Positions 18,722 through 32,682 of a stretch of DNA of 64,000 bases are shown piece after piece. The first letter of the stretch is position 1, and the number at the start of each line of letters is the position of its first letter. Under the pieces are notes generated by a model. The model searched no databases and was not told the origin of the DNA. It saw only the letters and a list, made by a program, of their open reading frames with translations. A program made the position numbers and the translations under genes. Source of the DNA: Tricharina praecox (lineage: Eukaryota); contig NW_026250414.1 in the NCBI RefSeq assembly GCF_024521635.1, positions 124,001-188,000 on the forward strand, read 5' to 3'.

Positions 18722-18777
18722 CGAAAGAATGGAAGAATGTATGGATCTATTACATAGGAAGCGGGGAAACAAAAAAA

Positions 18778-18859
18778 TGGAGGACTTGGGAATCGAACCC
18801 AAGACCTTCTCAAGTCACGATGATGCGAATGAGACGTTATACCCCTAAACCAGACCCCC
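18778..18859 (-). tRNA. tRNA-Ala(CGC) with a 10-nt intron
   Basis: Reverse complement GGGGGTC TG GTTTAGGGGTATAAC G TCTCA TTCGCA[tcatcgtgac]T TGAGA AGGTC TTGGG TTCGATT CCCAA GTCCTCC A. Has the G3:U70 Ala identity pair and a T7 terminator immediately downstream. Confidence 0.95.
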
Positions 18860-19264
18860 ATGTGATACTAAACATGTTTAATAGTATGATAATATATGAA
18901 AACCCAAAATCAACCACCAGCTAGCGACCATTTCATCCAATTTCTTCACGCGTGCCTACCTTCTGGAACCCGGCGATCACAACAACCAAGTACTCATATG
19001 CATAAATGTTGCCCGCATAAAATCAAACTACAGGATTCAAGTTCCGAAATAATATTTACGCCACTTCCAACGAGTGGTACCTAGCATGCTTACAACGCAC
19101 CATCCTTCTGGCCAAAGTTGCAGCCACCTGAAGATCTTACCACGCAGCCCCACCAACGTCCGAACTCACCACACAGCCCGCGAAAAGAAGAAAAAAACGA
19201 TATCTCACTACCATTGGTCAAATTCCGCATATGGACCTTCGGGGATATACAAAAACAAAACGAA

Positions 19265-19354
19265 TGGAGAACTAGGGAATCGAACCCTAGACCTTCTCAA
19301 ACTATGACATTTTGCCAATGCAAATGAGACGTTATACCACTAAACCAGATCCCC
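19265..19354 (-). tRNA. tRNA-Ala(TGC) with an 18-nt intron
   Basis: GGGGATC TG GTTTAGTGGTATAAC G TCTCA TTTGCA[ttggcaaaatgtcatagt]T TGAGA AGGTC TAGGG TTCGATT CCCTA GTTCTCC A. G3:U70 present; T tracts downstream. Confidence 0.95.
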
Positions 19355-20170
19355 ACAACGATGATGATGACGAAAACTACGCAATTTGATACTATAATCT
19401 AACCGATATTATGCTAGATCGTGGCAAAAGTTTACAACACGTCCGTCCTACAGTGTCATACTGGGATGTAGTCCCCTCATAGGTAATAATCCATCTAGAA
19501 TTGCGCCACTATGTCCACATTTGCAACCGGTATATCATCAACAGCACACCTACCGCCCACTCCAGCCGAAATATAACAGCACAACGTTTATAAGAACGTC
19601 TGTCGTATGGGTGACGATTCGACGAACCGAAGGGCTCGTGCACTATCGCATCACCATCAACCTTTCCAAGCTCTATCGACATCTTGGAATGCTAGGCTCG
19701 TCCTCTTTGTCTACCATCAGCGAGCCACTTGACCATCAGCTTACATTCCAGTCCGCGCTAACCACAGCAAGCCTATCTCGTCATTGATCATCACCCTCAT
19801 CAGGTGACCAACACGTTATGCCATCACATTTACCACATACTCCTCACCGTTCCTTTGAGTACGACTATGCTGTCGTAAAATATTCCGGGCCTATCGATTC
19901 AAGGCGATATTACTTGAATTACCGCGAATCTCCAAGAGGTTGACAAAGAATCGAGTGACTCAGTGTGCATTCGGGCCTTCTGGGTGCCTCCAGCTAGACA
20001 ACTGTACAGGCGGCAGATGGCTATAAAACTCTGGAGAATTTGCATGGAGATAGTACCACCCGACCATACGAATCTCTTAATCGGCTAGGTCATTCACACT
20101 GTCATGTTAGTCCTCCAAACGAGACAAAACAAAACAACAGATCAATGAAAGAGCGGTTTTATAGAGCAGT

Positions 20171-21743: not shown

Positions 21744-23230
21744 ATGCCGCCCCTCCATCTTCCGCCCCGCTTCTTGCTCCCATCAGGAACTACCCGCCGG
21801 GGATTGCTACACTTCTGCCGAAACTACAGCGCATCTAGTTCCCCGCGCCCCTCTCCCACCGACAAAAGCATACGCACCCATGCCCCATCTTCAAATCTCC
21901 ACTAACGAGCTGCACAGTCTTTATCGCGCTATCCTCGGGCATCGATAGCACCGTCACGACATCACTGCTACTCCGCCACCACCCACGCGAGAACCTGCAC
22001 CCGATCTACCTAGCGAACTGGGAGCCCTCTCAGCACCCGACTTCATCTGCGCCCAAGCTCGGCCCCTACGGAAAACCTCTCTCCGCCGATGCCGCTTCGC
22101 CCCAGCCGGAGAAGCAGAAATGCGTCGACCGGGAGTTCTCACGCGTGCAGCAGATCTGTGAGCACTTCGGACTGCCGAACAAACCGCTGAGGCTCAGCTT
22201 TGAGAAGGAGTACTGGAACGATGTTTTCGAGCCGATGCTAAACGCGTACGCTAGCGGCGTCACGCCGAATCCGGACATAGGCTGTAATCGCGAGGTGAAG
22301 TTTGGCGCGCTCGCGAAAACTCTAAGTGATATGGCCGGCGGTCGGAATTGGTGGCTGGCGACGGGACATTATGCCCGTGCCGATGCGGCGGGCAGGCTCT
22401 ATAGGAGCGCGGATAAAAGGAAGGATCAGACTTATTTCCTGTCCACGGTGACCGCTGAGGTGCTGAAGCACTGTCTTTTCCCGCTGGGTGCAGAGGGGTT
22501 GTTGAAGACGGAGGTTAAGGAGCAGGCGAAGAAGCTCGCAGTTCCGGGATGGCGCGAAGGGGAGGAGACCGGGGAGTCCTTTGGGCTATGTTTCGTTGAG
22601 CCTGCGGGCGGCAGGAATTCCGGGTTTCGAAGGTTCCTGGGAGAATATCTTCAGCCGGACCCGGGGTACTTCGTGGTGGGCGAATCGCGGGAGTCCTGGC
22701 CGAGTGGAGAGAAGATTAACATGCCGAGTGCCGGGTCCGTGGTGGGAACACATGAGGGGCTGTGGCATGCTACGATCGGTGAGAAGGCACGCCTGGAGCT
22801 GCCGCAAGGTTTGCCAATGTTTCAAGGCCGATGGTTCGTCAGCCGGAAGGATCGGAGGCGAAACACCATCGAGATTGTCAAGGGCGGCGATAATCGCGCG
22901 CTGTTTTCGAAGTCAATGGTGATCGATGATTGGTATTGGCACGGTAATGACGCGGAGGCAGCTGCCACGCGGCATCAACCACGGCCGGCGGAGACGGCGG
23001 AAGGAGAAACTTGGGAGAAGGGACTTGTGACACAATTCCGGCATATGCAGAGGCCGATTCGAGTCCGGGAGGTTAGGGTATTGGGCGAGGGCAGGAAGAT
23101 GGGAACGAAGAGGATCATGATCTCGTTCGACACGCCGCAGAAGTCGGTGGCGGAGGGACAGAATGCAGCCTTGTGGGACGGTGAGAGGTGCTTGGGTGGT
23201 GGGGTCATCGAGGAAATGGAGGCAGTGTGA
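21744..23230 (+). CDS. SLM3: Mitochondrial tRNA-specific 2-thiouridylase (MnmA/TRMU/Mtu1 family), ~478 aa
   Basis: Arg-rich presequence-like N-terminus; PP-loop IALSSGIDS; TPNPDIGCNREVKFG, LATGHYA, KDQTYFL, ESFGLCF and GQNAALWDGERCLGGG. One intron is required, predicted at 21868-21917. Confidence 0.92.
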
Positions 23231-23409
23231 TCTTATAAAACTATGTCCGACTGTGTTTATCTCCGCTCTGCGCCATATCTGACCTCAGCACGGCCATTCG
23301 ATCTCATCGCAATGTGTTCGTTGAGCGTATGATTCTCTTGTGCATTATCACCCGCTCAACAGTAAGGCGCTCTCGAAACATCCATAATGTACGTAACGAA
23401 TATGACGAT

Positions 23410-23640
23410 TAAACAAAAGAGAAAAACTGATATTAGCGCTTTTGGTCGGAGACGAGTGTCATTCCATGCACCGCCGGTTTCAAACCCACGGCAAAAGCAA
23501 AAACCATCACCACCCCCGGTGGGGTGGCTTGGAAACCCCAAGAGCGGAAAGATATATTTTTCACCCGGGTTGGAGCCCGGAACTTTCTCTCCACTCCCCT
23601 CGCCGATTGCATGTCCCAGACCACTGGACCACGCGGAGGT
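23410..23640 (-). ncRNA. Candidate Pol III element: degenerate tRNA-derived head plus structured body (ncRNA, SINE or tRNA pseudogene)
   Basis: A-box TGGTCCAGTGG inside an intact GTCC/GGAC D-stem; CCGGG-ctccaa-CCCGG T-arm-like hairpin; several downstream stems; T5/T4 tracts at the 3' end. Confidence 0.45.
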
Positions 23641-24881
23641 TTTTTCCGCGATGGGAACTCGGATTTGAAAACTATGAACCCGTGATATAAGTGCTCCGAG
23701 ATGGACTCGGCTTGCCTGCAGGTAGCCCCGCTCCCTCCCTCCCCCTACCTCCAGCTTCCAAGTTAGCTGTTCCATTCTCTGCTCGAGCAATACAAATTTA
23801 AACGGAATCAATGCTACTCAGCTACATACACGGCCATTCAGTTCCACTGACATGCAAAACCGGTACATACGGCCATCTACTATACACAGGCATCTGGCTA
23901 CGCAATTACCCCGGCATGCAGTTTCATACGTTCGTCGATCCATCCTGATAGATTAAACCCCACTTCTGTAGTTTCTTTTATTTCCCATCAGGCAGTCATT
24001 TTTCCTTAACTGGCGGACTACTGGTGGTGGTATGTACATAATACCTATGTTTGACGGTCTTGCTCACTATCCTTAGGATCGCGGGGCCTACATCTTTCGC
24101 TCCACACACGCTTATGGAGGCTGAGCAGCTTTCATGTCCCTTAAAGGCGAGGCATGAGAGTGTGTAATCGCCGCACAACCCCCCATGCGGTACTTTCCTT
24201 ATAACACCAGCAGCCTCTCCGCGGCACTGATGAACCACCTCCCACCCTTCGCCGATCCGCCTTCCAGCCGACCAGGTACTTCCAAATGCCGCCGTCGGAA
24301 TCGCCTCGCTCCATCCCAGCCGGTAAGTAGGCAAGAACCGACACCCATCCCCTCCCATCCTCTCATACACGAACTCACGCACAAGCATTCTGTTCTCATC
24401 CTTCTCATCCAACTAATCAAGTCTTCTTCTAACTACATTTCAACATGGGGCCATAACCGTCAGTCGAGTGACACATTATGGCTACTATCCTTGGTATGTA
24501 CCAGAAATCATCAGGATACGAGATGATATTAGGTAACTAAGGGTGAGTGCTACTGCCATACGAGAAATAAATGATCCTCAATAATAGAACGTATAGATCG
24601 AAGCAGAACCGACGCTCCCTAAAATTCCGTTTTTTTTGAACAGCAAAGCGAACGGAATTCCGAACAGCCTGCGCGGAGTGGACCGCGAATTACTCGCATG
24701 TCTTTGTTCGACCGGGACTCAGATTTCCGATCGCAGGAAAATAAAGCTACAGCGGCGATACCGTACCTATCTGCTTATATCTAATTCAGAAAATATTCTC
24801 CCACCCCCACGCGTCCGTTCTCTGTGATTCGCCTAACCATCGCGCGACCAATTCTGTGCGATCGCAAAATCTCCCAACGAT

Positions 24882-24985
24882 GGGGATCTGGTTTAGTGGT
24901 ATAACGTCTCATTTGCATTGCCGTTTCTTCACCAAAAGAGCGGCGCGATTTGAGAAGGTCTAGGGTTCGATTCCCTAGTTCTCCA
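24882..24985 (+). tRNA. tRNA-Ala(TGC) with a 32-nt intron (24918-24949)
   Basis: Mature sequence identical to the copy at 19265-19354; followed by a T5 tract. Confidence 0.95.
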
Positions 24986-29302: not shown

Positions 29303-31664
29303 CGGATTCAGCGTATGCGTATACGTGTACGTTCGCAGCTGCGCGGGCGTGATGGGGATGTTAAAGACCAGCGATGCGATGAAGGCGAGAGTTTTCAGCA
29401 GCTCTGCGTGCTCGCTTCGAGCCCAAAGTGGCGAGACCAACTGCACTCGCCGGAACGGCCGGTCAGCTACATGCGCATGCACTATATCTTGCGAAGTTCC
29501 ACAACCTCGAATCTAGGTATGTAGGACTCACAACAGCGGAGGTGACAATGGCCGTTGAGATGCGTTGCATGGAATGCGCTGATATGGGCCCACGGTTCCC
29601 TGGGCCAGGCACAGGTTTGGCTAGGCCACGTCAGGAAACTGGCCTTCCCTTCGACGTCGATGGTGAAATTGTAGCGACCGACGGGTGGAGTGATCTTTGC
29701 GTTCGTTCCTGCCTTGCTCGCTTCGGGGTGCCTGGGGACACGTGAAGTGAATTGGCGAGAACGGACCCGGGACAGGGCAGGGGGACGGAGTGACTTGACG
29801 AGGACGAATCCGGGCAGGGGGACGTGACGTCGCCATGATCCTAGCCCTTAGTCTTGGTTGGCGTGCCGGACCGTTGGCGCTCGGGTATCTCCGCGGGTGA
29901 CACGCCATGTTGGCGCGGAGATCCACCACCGCAGTACCGCACCGCAGCGCACCGCTTCGTCGCTGCCGCCGCCGTTTCGATCGTTATGCTTTTTCTGACA
30001 GCCCCGAAGATCGAGCTAAATCACCCGTCAAACCCCGTAAGAATGCCCCGTGGAAGCGTCGTGGAACAGAAAATATTTTCCTGTGGCGTGGCAGCATGCA
30101 AACGCTCAGGGGCACGCCTATTTCCAGAAACCAGGTTACCACCGTTTCGAGTTCCGGTGGATTCGTATCCAGCATCCCACGGACGTAGGGTTCCCCCAGG
30201 AATGAACTGAGCGAAAATGAGCATCAAGGAGTCGATCATACCAGGAAGCCCTATACACCAAGCGCGAGTAGTATATGCTAGCAAGAGTGAAGAGGTGAAT
30301 CACCCTACCGTATCACTCCTCCTCGCCTCATCCCCCATTCAAATGTAAACCCAATCCTAATCCCGAACCACCATCACCGAGAATTTATCACGCCTCTCAG
30401 CTCTGTAGCTGAAGCTTGATCCCAGAGCAGAGAGCAGAGAGCAGAGTATACGAAACCACACTCAGCGTCTGTGTCATTATCCGCCGTGAACACCGTTTCC
30501 CGAAGGCTGACATTAGTCCATTGGTGGAAAGCTGCAGAGGCAAGCTCCCCGCCGGGGCTGCTTTAGTCTTCGGGGGCTCGGAAGATCTATCCAGCCGACA
30601 CTTCCGTGGATCCCACCTGCCTATGTTTTTAGGCCAGCACCTTACGGGTTGCTTTTGGATTAGTCGGCACTTTCGAATAAGTTACGATACCGTACAATGC
30701 TAGGGTAAGTAATCCCAGGGGGCGTGGGGTTCAGGTTGGTTCTCGGTGAGGCGACCACTCGTACCGTGGAAAGGCTGTGGGCCAAGAGGACAAGGGATTT
30801 TGAGGCGTGATGCTCGATGGAGTGCCCGCGTTGGAACACCTTGTGGCCAGATACCCCAACAATCTCGAAACGAAATCTGCATGACAACCAAAGAACCAAG
30901 TCGGCGATACCGAAGTACCCCTCGAAGTACATTCATCCCTGGCCTCAAAAGTAAGATATAACTTCCAAGCCTGCTTGGAATCACGCATGCGGATTCAGGC
31001 GCATACACAGGGTATCACTCGAGTTTCCAACGCAACCCAGAACCGCAAGAGCCAACTTATGCGCCAGAATCAATTGAGTGATATAAGAGTGAGTTACGTA
31101 CAAAGCCATGGTCTTTTATCTTCCAAGCCCCACACTCAAGCACCAGCCACAATCACTCCTCGCCGCGATCGATTCATAGATCTAGGTCGATACTGTGGGC
31201 CTCATGACGCCAGACCCGATTCTGTCGGCCCCAACAATGAGATGTTGCTGGATACATACTTTTTATGTTCGTCTGGTCGGTTGGTCAACACACACACAAC
31301 CATCATAGACCTTATCACCCCTCATTCATCATTGCTTTTCATCTTTGCGTTCATCACCTGAACAACACGGGTGGCTCTTTTCTTTCATTGTCGTTTCTCT
31401 CTCTAGTAAAATACGATCGGTCTCCTATGTATCTTCTTTTTAAAGTTGTCTAAGGGTCATCTCGTCCCCAGTGCTTCAATCCATACCCACCATACCTATT
31501 CCATCAAAAACAACCAGCCCAAATCTTCTTCCCAGCTTTCTCTCTTTTCAAGCCGGCCCTCTTTCACCCTTTCCAAGCCCGCCCTCGACCCCTCACTCAT
31601 CCCACCCCCCCTCCACCAAACCCCAACCCTTTACCAGACCCATTGAAGCCACACAACAAAAGAA

Positions 31665-31754
31665 TGGAGGACTTGGGAATCGAACCCAAGACCTTCTCAA
31701 GTCACGATCTATCAAAGATGCGAATGAGACGTTATACCCCTAAACCAGACCCCC
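31665..31754 (-). tRNA. tRNA-Ala(CGC) with an 18-nt intron
   Basis: Mature sequence identical to the copy at 18778-18859; intron tctttgatagatcgtgac. Confidence 0.95.
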
Positions 31755-32682
31755 ATAGATGGCTAGTTTGTATGGCATTGGTTTGAAACCTAATTAAAGC
31801 AGAATTGACGAGCAGTGAGTATTAGGCGGGTAAGGCGGGTGATAGCGCACGCATGCACGTAAGCCGGTCTCCATGGTGAAAGGCGGCTGGGCTGGTCGGT
31901 AGGTGGATTCCAGGTGGTTTTCAGGTGGTGTTGTGTGGGTATGGGTGCTGGGTGTGGTTTTGGGTTGGTCGGAACTCGGAAGTGTAGACGAAGCATATGA
32001 TGGTTTGTTCATGGGATGTGATTCGCTTTGTCCGTTCGCCTCGTAGATATTAGAAAACTACAACCGTCGTCTCTAGTTTGACTTCCCCCCAAGTACTGTA
32101 ATGGGTAGGATTGAAGGCGGACGACAAGGGTGGAAGAAAACGAGTAGTGGAAGGAAATGGGGGTGGAAGGAACAAGAGGATGAGAAATGTAGGTAGGTAA
32201 CTTGCGTTTGTTATTGCACCTTTCCATCCGGGAGAGTGATGGCAGAACCCATTAAGGGCGGAGTTAACCGATGCCGTTCATCGTGAATACCACTCACACA
32301 GTTTGGTTTACGTCTGATGGTCAAGACCAATAGCCCTTCGAGGCAACAACCATGATCCTCGTAGTTACCAGGAGTGTCGTGAATATCAATATTTGTACTT
32401 GACATCAGTTTCCTCATTCACTGCATGCAGCCACCCTACTTCACTTACGGGTGATGTAGGTGACTATAAGAGTTCAAAAGTTCCAAGAGTTGGAGTTGAC
32501 AGGCCATGATTAAGAATACACACGGCTATGACCATTTTAATGATAGTGCCAGCCCCCTCGCCCCCCCTCGCCCTGCAGTACGCATTCTCCAACCCCCCCG
32601 CTTACAAAAGACCAAACCAAGGTATCATCATCACATCACATCGTATCATATCAATCACTCCCCTTCGCCCTCACTATCACCG

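Follow-up and report, generated by a model that had tools for sequence, protein, structure and literature searches.

A putative Pol III-type element of Tricharina praecox and its dispersed relatives in soil metagenomes

Introduction

The window analysed here, a 64-kb stretch of the Tricharina praecox genome (64,000 nucleotides, contig NW_026250414.1, positions 124,001 to 188,000; coordinates below count from its first letter), carries a minus-strand element between the gene of a mitochondrial-type tRNA 2-thiouridylase (MTU1) and a tRNA gene at 24882-24985. A preliminary description, made from the letters alone, saw in this element a tRNA-derived head of RNA polymerase III (Pol III) type fused to a structured body of ~135 nt, and proposed either an undescribed non-coding RNA or a short interspersed nuclear element (SINE). 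The locus raises three questions: where the unit ends, whether it stands alone, and whether it is a mobile repeat, a small RNA gene or the remains of a tRNA.

Results

A dispersed family that ends at a T run

Logan contigs of four DNA runs from one soil-metagenome study (X1 to X4) were aligned to positions 22900-24100 at a likeness of at least 80%, giving 81, 43, 13 and 26 aligned pieces, respectively; statements about single pieces refer to the 32 listed out of 167, and those about variants to 40 rows out of 80. Nine of the 32 listed pieces represent the locus itself, with 0-4 differences and extensions into its unique flanks. The other 23 fall wholly within 23487-23709, carry 2-29 differences and then run into unlike sequence; none of them enters 23437-23486, and the loose ends before 23492 disagree among contigs (agreement 0.53), most starting with further T on the minus strand. 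Depth in X1 is 366.7 at 23474-23514 and 630.1 at 23515-23555, versus 129 at 23556-23596 and 189.6 at 23597-23637 further 5', and the flanks have depths of 7.41 and 4.4. Judged from these alignments, the element belongs as a single copy to a repeated family of Pol III-type units with dispersed members, the conserved part of which occupies ~150 nt of the minus strand, from ~23650 to 23493, and ends in T5GCT4G.

Since the other copies stop at 23487-23492, positions 23437-23491 are not part of the conserved unit, and neither is the basal helix of the preliminary description (CGCTCTTGG/CCAAAAGCG, part of a 25-nt inverted repeat that is 72% complementary). The stretch 23437-23491 (minus strand), which holds the 3' strand of that helix together with a second arm, is unique flank at the depth of a single copy (7.41, X1), and both structures lie outside the family homology; the arm itself, GCCG..GGTTTGAAACC..GGCGG (23471-23492, minus strand), is present as described. 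Homology stops at the internal T5/T4 run near 23500, where the preliminary description had itself said that a full-length body would fail; the T-run end is predicted from this homology boundary. What survives of the proposal is a Pol III-type unit without a match in Rfam, and what falls is the joining of a head to a ~135-nt body.

A tRNA-derived leader of the RPR1/SNR52 type, driving a ~135-nt RNA with its end at the T run near 23420, is accordingly hard to sustain and is judged highly improbable. In its favour, the A and B-box-like motifs do belong to the 5' half, variation is higher in the 5' part than in the 3' part, and the proposed 133-nt body has a fold z of -2.41 (5/200 shuffles equally good; -1.74 and 15/200 for the proposed 219-nt unit), both units being predicted to fold modestly better than shuffles. 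Yet homology ends at 23487-23492, the body's 3' half and the basal helix are covered by none of the 23 listed non-locus pieces, T5/T4 runs that suffice at the tRNA genes of the window lie inside the proposed body, and Rfam gives no match to ribonuclease P (RNase P), MRP or small nucleolar RNA (snoRNA) families. Nor does the element divide into a disposable leader and a separate RNA cargo, as its B-box-like motif sits in the main conserved hairpin and neither an RNase P RNA nor a C/D snoRNA follows.

Equally, the preliminary description had held out a lone decayed tRNA pseudogene beside chance hairpins, with neither function nor family, as its alternative. Such a remnant would agree with the failure to recognise a cloverleaf, the single copy in the window and the absence of the element from the closest relative found. 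It is contradicted because the family has many copies, dozens of them, in unlike flanks, and also by changes on both sides of predicted pairs and by a 3' edge that falls at the T run in every listed copy; the idea is scarcely credible.

Peak depth exceeds that of the own locus by a factor that ranges from ~150 in X1 down to ~7 in X3. As this ratio varies between runs, the copies cannot, we infer, all sit in this one genome (assembly drop-out being a caveat), and more than one organism would then carry the family. In X1, assembly broke the own locus into two contigs whose sole overlap is 23520-23538, inside the most repeated part, as expected because repeats tangle the assembly graph; in X2 and X3, the element is present wherever strains cover the own locus.

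Predicted fold and paired changes

Minimum free energy (MFE) folding of 151 nt (23650-23500), from the window sequence alone, gives -64.9 kcal/mol with a z of -3.0, and none of 200 shuffles folds as well. The predicted RNA is a three-way junction closed by a helix between its 5' and 3' parts, followed by a 3' GC hairpin and a U run (all positions on the minus strand). In the closing helix, AAACCUC (23642-23636) pairs with GGGGUUU (23539-23533). Hairpin 1, GCGUGGUCCAG-UGGU-CUGGGACAUGC (23634-23609), contains the A-box match TGGTCCAGTGG, and hairpin 2 (23598-23540) has a 13-bp lower helix (23598-23586/23552-23540) and, beyond an asymmetric internal loop, a 6-bp tip (23581-23576/23569-23564) that carries the B-box-like GGCTCCAACCC (23577-23567) in its apical loop. 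The 3' GC hairpin CCACCCC-ACCG-GGGGUGG (23532-23504) is followed by a T5-GC-T4 run (23503-23493), a putative Pol III terminator at the 3' edge of family homology.

Of the 40 displayed variant rows, the 23 at 23546-23649 were placed on this fold; the others comprise 3 in the downstream flank, 1 at 23900 and 13 at 23652-23674, which occur in at most one contig per run each and probably represent one divergent copy. Eleven of the mapped rows are unpaired, and compensatory changes are present in three pairs of the predicted helices, altered on both sides in other copies: 23626/23617 in hairpin 1 (C-G in the window, U-A in most other copies), and 23592/23546 (G-C to U-A) and 23579/23566 (C-G to U-A) in hairpin 2. 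By a rough estimate of our own, ~0.6 pairs with both partners variable would be expected by chance. One-sided changes that keep a standard pair occur at 23637, 23593 and 23588, the first being a U>C opposite G23538 that turns U-G into C-G in the closing helix (7, 3, 2 and 3 contigs in X1-X4), and pairs are broken by three rows at two places (23578 twice, 23551). In X2, the variant at 23592 accounts for 51.1/54.8 of depth and that at 23546 for 125.8/125.8, near-complete shares by which the two must mostly co-occur; for the other paired variants, co-occurrence is drawn from frequencies and not read within single contigs. Most remaining variants and indels of hairpin 2 sit in its two loops. The 5' part of the element is more variable than its central and 3' parts, and the alignment breaks at 23613.

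By inspection, a 23614 A>C change would remove the single G-A mismatch of hairpin 1, which with the commonest variants becomes a continuous 11-bp helix; the supposed D arm is therefore more likely a hairpin than part of a cloverleaf. The cloverleaf-type arms first described dissolve in the same way, the D arm being part of this 11-bp hairpin in most other copies and the T arm the tip of the 13+6-bp hairpin, and the fold makes a cloverleaf reading doubtful. tRNA ancestry is likewise not demonstrated: ARAGORN finds no tRNA at the element, and neither 23300-23800 nor 23488-23662 is matched on the minus strand by the Rfam tRNA model at E ≤ 10, the only tRNA-type match there being to tRNA-Sec (14.3 bits) on the plus strand. 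The preliminary description was right that no 3' acceptor strand pairs, as CGCGGAG does not occur downstream of CTCCGCG; CGCGGA is found upstream, at 23650-23645.

Promoter motifs and upstream boxes

All motifs named in the preliminary description sit on the minus strand where it had put them. TTATAT (23690-23685) is an upstream A/T-rich box. A pattern search recovers CTCCGCG-TG-GTCC-AGTGGTCTG-GGAC with the A box at 23631-23621, CCGGG-CTCCAA-CCCGG (23580-23565) encloses the relaxed B-box match, the CCACCCC/GGGGTGG hairpin (23510-23527) appears in an inverted-repeat listing, and ATATCA, then TTTTTCTCTTTT, are both present as described. The A box is separated by 43 nt from the relaxed B box on the same strand, the latter agreeing at 8/11 positions with the B-box consensus, and an internal Pol III promoter in the 5' part is thereby present at motif level. 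By themselves these motifs would be weak evidence: the 64-kb window holds 6 matches to the A-box pattern, two of them inside tRNA genes, vs 1.96 expected, and 10 to the relaxed B-box pattern vs 5.4 expected. At the other end, T4-T6 runs close the tRNA genes of the window, so the T5GCT4 run should terminate Pol III as well.

Upstream, the putative TATA-like boxes TTATAT and TTCATAG (23690-23685 and 23678-23672, minus strand) stand ~35-50 nt before hairpin 1; aligned by eye, TTCATAG of the window corresponds to TTTATAG of other copies. A/T-rich boxes occur at about -35 to -45 in 3/4 of the window tRNA genes.

Such a box might instead drive RNA polymerase II at a gene resembling those of small nuclear RNAs (snRNAs), with GGUUUUUGC as an Sm-like site, a 3' hairpin that varies in sequence between copies and a T run that is no terminator. 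The conserved upstream region would suit this, as would the U-rich tract of the window between the GC hairpin and the GCCG..CGGC hairpin (23471-23492). It is nevertheless very unlikely, given the A and B boxes at tRNA-like spacing, the want of any Rfam snRNA match at E ≤ 10, the further T runs and unrelated sequence that follow the T run in other copies, and a GGUUUUUGC tract without the A of the usual Sm consensus.

A 3' module common to more abundant sequences

The most abundant and least variable part of the element is a 3' module of GGGGUUU plus the GC hairpin (23539-23504, minus strand). X1 depth reaches 1098 at 23521, ~6-8x that of the central part. Loose ends gather behind 23539 in X1 (5), X2 (5) and X4 (2). 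Besides the element's own 5' part, at least two further, unrelated sequences stand upstream of the last 48 nt (23492-23539): one recurs in X1 and X2 (5 reads each), and X4 supplies another; summed over these 48 nt, X1 depth is roughly 3-5x that of the rest of the element. The tail of the element is T or T/G-rich, with its 3' 48 nt common to other, more abundant contexts. SINEs are described (PMC5786205) as a small-RNA head joined to a tail derived from a long interspersed nuclear element (LINE), and the 3' module may be a LINE-type tail serving copying.

Retroposon or small RNA gene

Copy number, dissimilar flanks downstream, variability of the head and the occurrence of the 3' module in more abundant sequences favour a new SINE-like retroposon family of Pol III units, which is our tentative first choice, held with somewhat less than even confidence. 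Many copies in unlike flanks were also the outcome by which the preliminary description would have recognised a SINE, given target-site duplications as well.

Several observations weigh against retroposition. On the upstream side, the loose ends behind 23646/23648 are alike over 30 nt (agreement 0.78 in X1 and 0.75 in X2, 3 contigs each), and their continuations finish in CTATAAA or TCATAA (plus strand). Furthermore, one copy can be aligned as far as 23709 in three of the listed pieces (a single piece from each of X1, X3 and X4), at depths of 5.5, 3.2 and 2.7 vs 4.4-7.4, 2.1-2.5 and 2.5-3.0 for the own locus in the same runs, which suggests that this copy is a paralogue in the same genome as the window. 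Such upstream likeness lies beyond the reach of a transcript that begins near the A box and therefore favours genes with their own promoter. Copy numbers come from pooled metagenome contigs that are not assignable to genomes, and so are not per-genome values. The window has only one copy and 11 other loci have none, blastn-short of the 301-nt region against the 64-kb window and these loci returning nothing longer than 15 nt. At the window locus there is neither an A-rich tail on the element nor a target-site duplication that fits the family borders, and no empty site was found. The three both-sided pair changes fit a functional RNA at least as well.

The 11 loci were retrieved with the neighbouring MTU1 protein, and two of them alone, L001 and L002 (18 kb), are close, with an MTU1 84% identical; in both, the element is found neither downstream of MTU1 nor elsewhere, and the intergenic region is not alignable. 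As a candidate duplication, a 13-nt direct repeat (23428-23440/23683-23695, 11/13, ~85%) was rejected, being at chance level by estimate, off the borders and enclosing non-conserved DNA. It brackets the whole unit of the preliminary description and contains TTATAT and ATATCA.

The main alternative is a family of non-mobile genes for small Pol III RNAs, comparable to rodent 4.5SI, vault, Y or adenovirus VA RNAs, with one to few copies in each of many soil fungi, a TATA-like promoter of its own for each copy and an RNA that would serve as a structured ribonucleoprotein component. To our knowledge, no such gene family is known in fungi. It would account for the likeness of the upstream 30 nt, with a TATAAA-like box at their end, and for the dissimilar downstream flanks, for a unit that ends exactly at the T run without an A-rich tail, for the lack of a border-fitting target-site duplication at the window locus and for a 5' part more variable than the central and 3' parts; the fold z of -3.0, the three both-sided pair changes, the three more that keep pairing and the unpaired state of 11/23 variant rows agree with it too. 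A precedent exists in 4.5SI genes, which are described as having A and B boxes plus TATA-like boxes at -31/-24 (PMC10137851). Single-copy genes are nonetheless hard to square with a 3' module at ~150x the own-locus depth and 81 pieces in one run (X1), with the occurrence of that module behind at least two other upstream sequences, with the absence of the element at the same intergenic position in a relative whose MTU1 is 84% identical, and with three variant rows at 23578 and 23551 that break pairs. The gene family is thus a substantial possibility, though not the expected one.

A related proposal goes further: an undescribed structured Pol III small RNA of soil ascomycetes, ~150 nt long, with its own TATA-type promoter and paralogous families that have the 3' module in common, as a fungal counterpart of vault/Y/VA/4.5SI-type RNAs. 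This is conceivable but rather unlikely; a bolder version would have the tip of hairpin 2 imitate the CR-I/P4 core of RNase P/MRP RNA and recruit RNase P/MRP proteins.

Searches for known families

Rfam yields no family for the element, the best match reaching 16 bits vs a gathering score of 48; the preliminary description, too, could not match the body to 5S, SRP, U snRNAs or RNase P/MRP. At E ≤ 10 there is no Rfam match to RNase P, MRP, snoRNA or snRNA families, and by eye the element has no C/D or H/ACA boxes and no RUGAUGA/CUGA pair. Likenesses to a permuted tRNA and to the Alu domain of the signal recognition particle (SRP) were considered by eye and dropped, neither having tool support.

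A core 19-mer has 4 exact matches in prokaryote genomes (596 billion bases, ~4.3 expected), each 19-20 nt long, and core strings have 0 matches in the viral contigs of IMG/VR; by these searches the element is neither prokaryotic nor viral. A literature search found no fungal element of this kind, and five core strings occur in no paper (supplements not covered).

A coding exon as the cause of conservation was rejected: Pfam has no match in any of the 5 open frames over the element, and 1-nt indels occur between copies. In translation, frameshifts separate the copies, and the commonest variant creates a stop. Five of six frames are open across 23356-23817 (82-153 codons, stop to stop), and spurious calls of open reading frames are easy there.

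Within hairpin 2, GGAGTGGAGAGAAAGTTCCGGGCTCCA (23565-23598, minus strand) is similar to the CR-I/P4 core found in bacterial RNase P RNA. In an alignment with Vibrio rnpB, 23/27 columns are identical with two gaps (score 30 vs a shuffle mean of 17.1, 0/300 as good), in a comparison chosen after the likeness was noticed; against two other bacteria the resemblance is weak (29/300 and 111/300 shuffles as good). Kinship was rejected on account of two insertions in the CR-I look-alike and the lack of an Rfam RNase P match, and the resemblance is probably that of a look-alike.

Genomic neighbourhood

The MTU1-type gene (21839-23230, plus strand) is convergent with the element and encodes a protein with Pfam domains PF03054, PF20259 and PF20258, whose nearest Atlas cluster is mostly Ascomycota. 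The surroundings are rich in Pol III genes. Four intron-bearing tRNA genes, at 18777-18860 (minus), 19264-19355 (minus), 24882-24985 (plus) and 31664-31755 (minus), lie within 13 kb, are of one kind with a common 5' end GGGG[AG]TCTGGTTTAG, and by their anticodon loops, TGC or CGC, probably specify Ala. Rfam recovers three of the four, missing that at 18777-18860; ARAGORN reports 3 tRNAs in the window, calling one Met and another '???', and overlooks the fourth gene. In L001 and L002, Rfam finds one tRNA gene (L002, 2319-2401, minus strand) and ARAGORN none. L002 10313-10437, which is 85% identical to the window tRNA gene at 24882-24985, is missed by ARAGORN and by Rfam at its gathering score.

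Discussion

The family, its borders, its motifs and the paired changes are observed; a cycle of Pol III transcription and retroposition is a proposal that goes beyond them. In the retroposon reading preferred here, TFIIIC would bind the A and B boxes and TFIIIB would sit over the upstream A/T box; Pol III would start near 23650 and stop in the T run, yielding a small RNA in the form of a three-way junction that the 5'/3' helix closes. A promoter-bearing 5' part would have been joined to a 48-nt 3' module carried by more abundant repeats, copies may be made through this putative LINE-type tail, and master copies would be under selection for the RNA fold.

Catalogues of short Pol III elements in fungi are poor, and Rfam contains none of them. 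Should the retroposon reading hold, the element would define a new compact family, one that could serve as an insertion marker and would account for breaks that arise when soil ascomycetes are assembled from metagenomes. A gene family would instead add a new class of abundant structured small RNA in fungi beyond tRNA, 5S, U6, SRP and RNase P RNAs, and raise the question of its protein partners. On either reading, the unit is predicted to be a compact natural cassette of Pol III promoter and terminator from a filamentous fungus.

Comparison with known systems

Among ascomycetes, the Mg-SINE of Magnaporthe is a tRNA-related SINE. The element is like such SINEs in being short and dispersed with A and B boxes in its 5' part, and some of them have a 3' end in common with a LINE-like element. 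AfuSINE2 of Aspergillus fumigatus, as described (PMC5063351), is a dispersed sequence of 140-493 bp whose 5' part holds A and B boxes and gives way to a non-tRNA region; it has a low copy number, target-site duplications of 4-14 bp and an (ACT)n tail on one copy. Compared by description only, the present element differs from AfuSINE2 in having no fitting duplication, a T-run end, a partly conserved upstream flank and a tRNA ancestry that is not demonstrable.

4.5SI RNAs are restricted to rodents, where they have few genes. They are described as small Pol III RNAs related to tRNA or SINEs, with genes that combine internal A and B boxes and a TATA-like box in the 5' flank (PMC10137851). The element has the same combination of A and B boxes with a TATA-like 5'-flank box, although homology is not expected.

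Yeast RPR1 and SNR52 have leader-type promoters, with A and B boxes 5' of the main part of the transcript. In the element, too, these boxes lie 5' of a more conserved part; unlike in RPR1 and SNR52, its B-box-like motif belongs to the apical loop of the main conserved hairpin rather than to a disposable leader, and there is no RNase P RNA or C/D snoRNA cargo.

Adenovirus VA RNAs and vault RNAs are ~100-160 nt long, with internal A and B boxes, a closing 5'/3' helix and a U-run end. Hosts and partners differ, Rfam reveals no sequence relation and only the element has the extra 3' hairpin, but it is like these RNAs in size, boxes, closing helix and U-run end. In summary, the element is real, undescribed, shorter than the preliminary description proposed, and of a known general kind.

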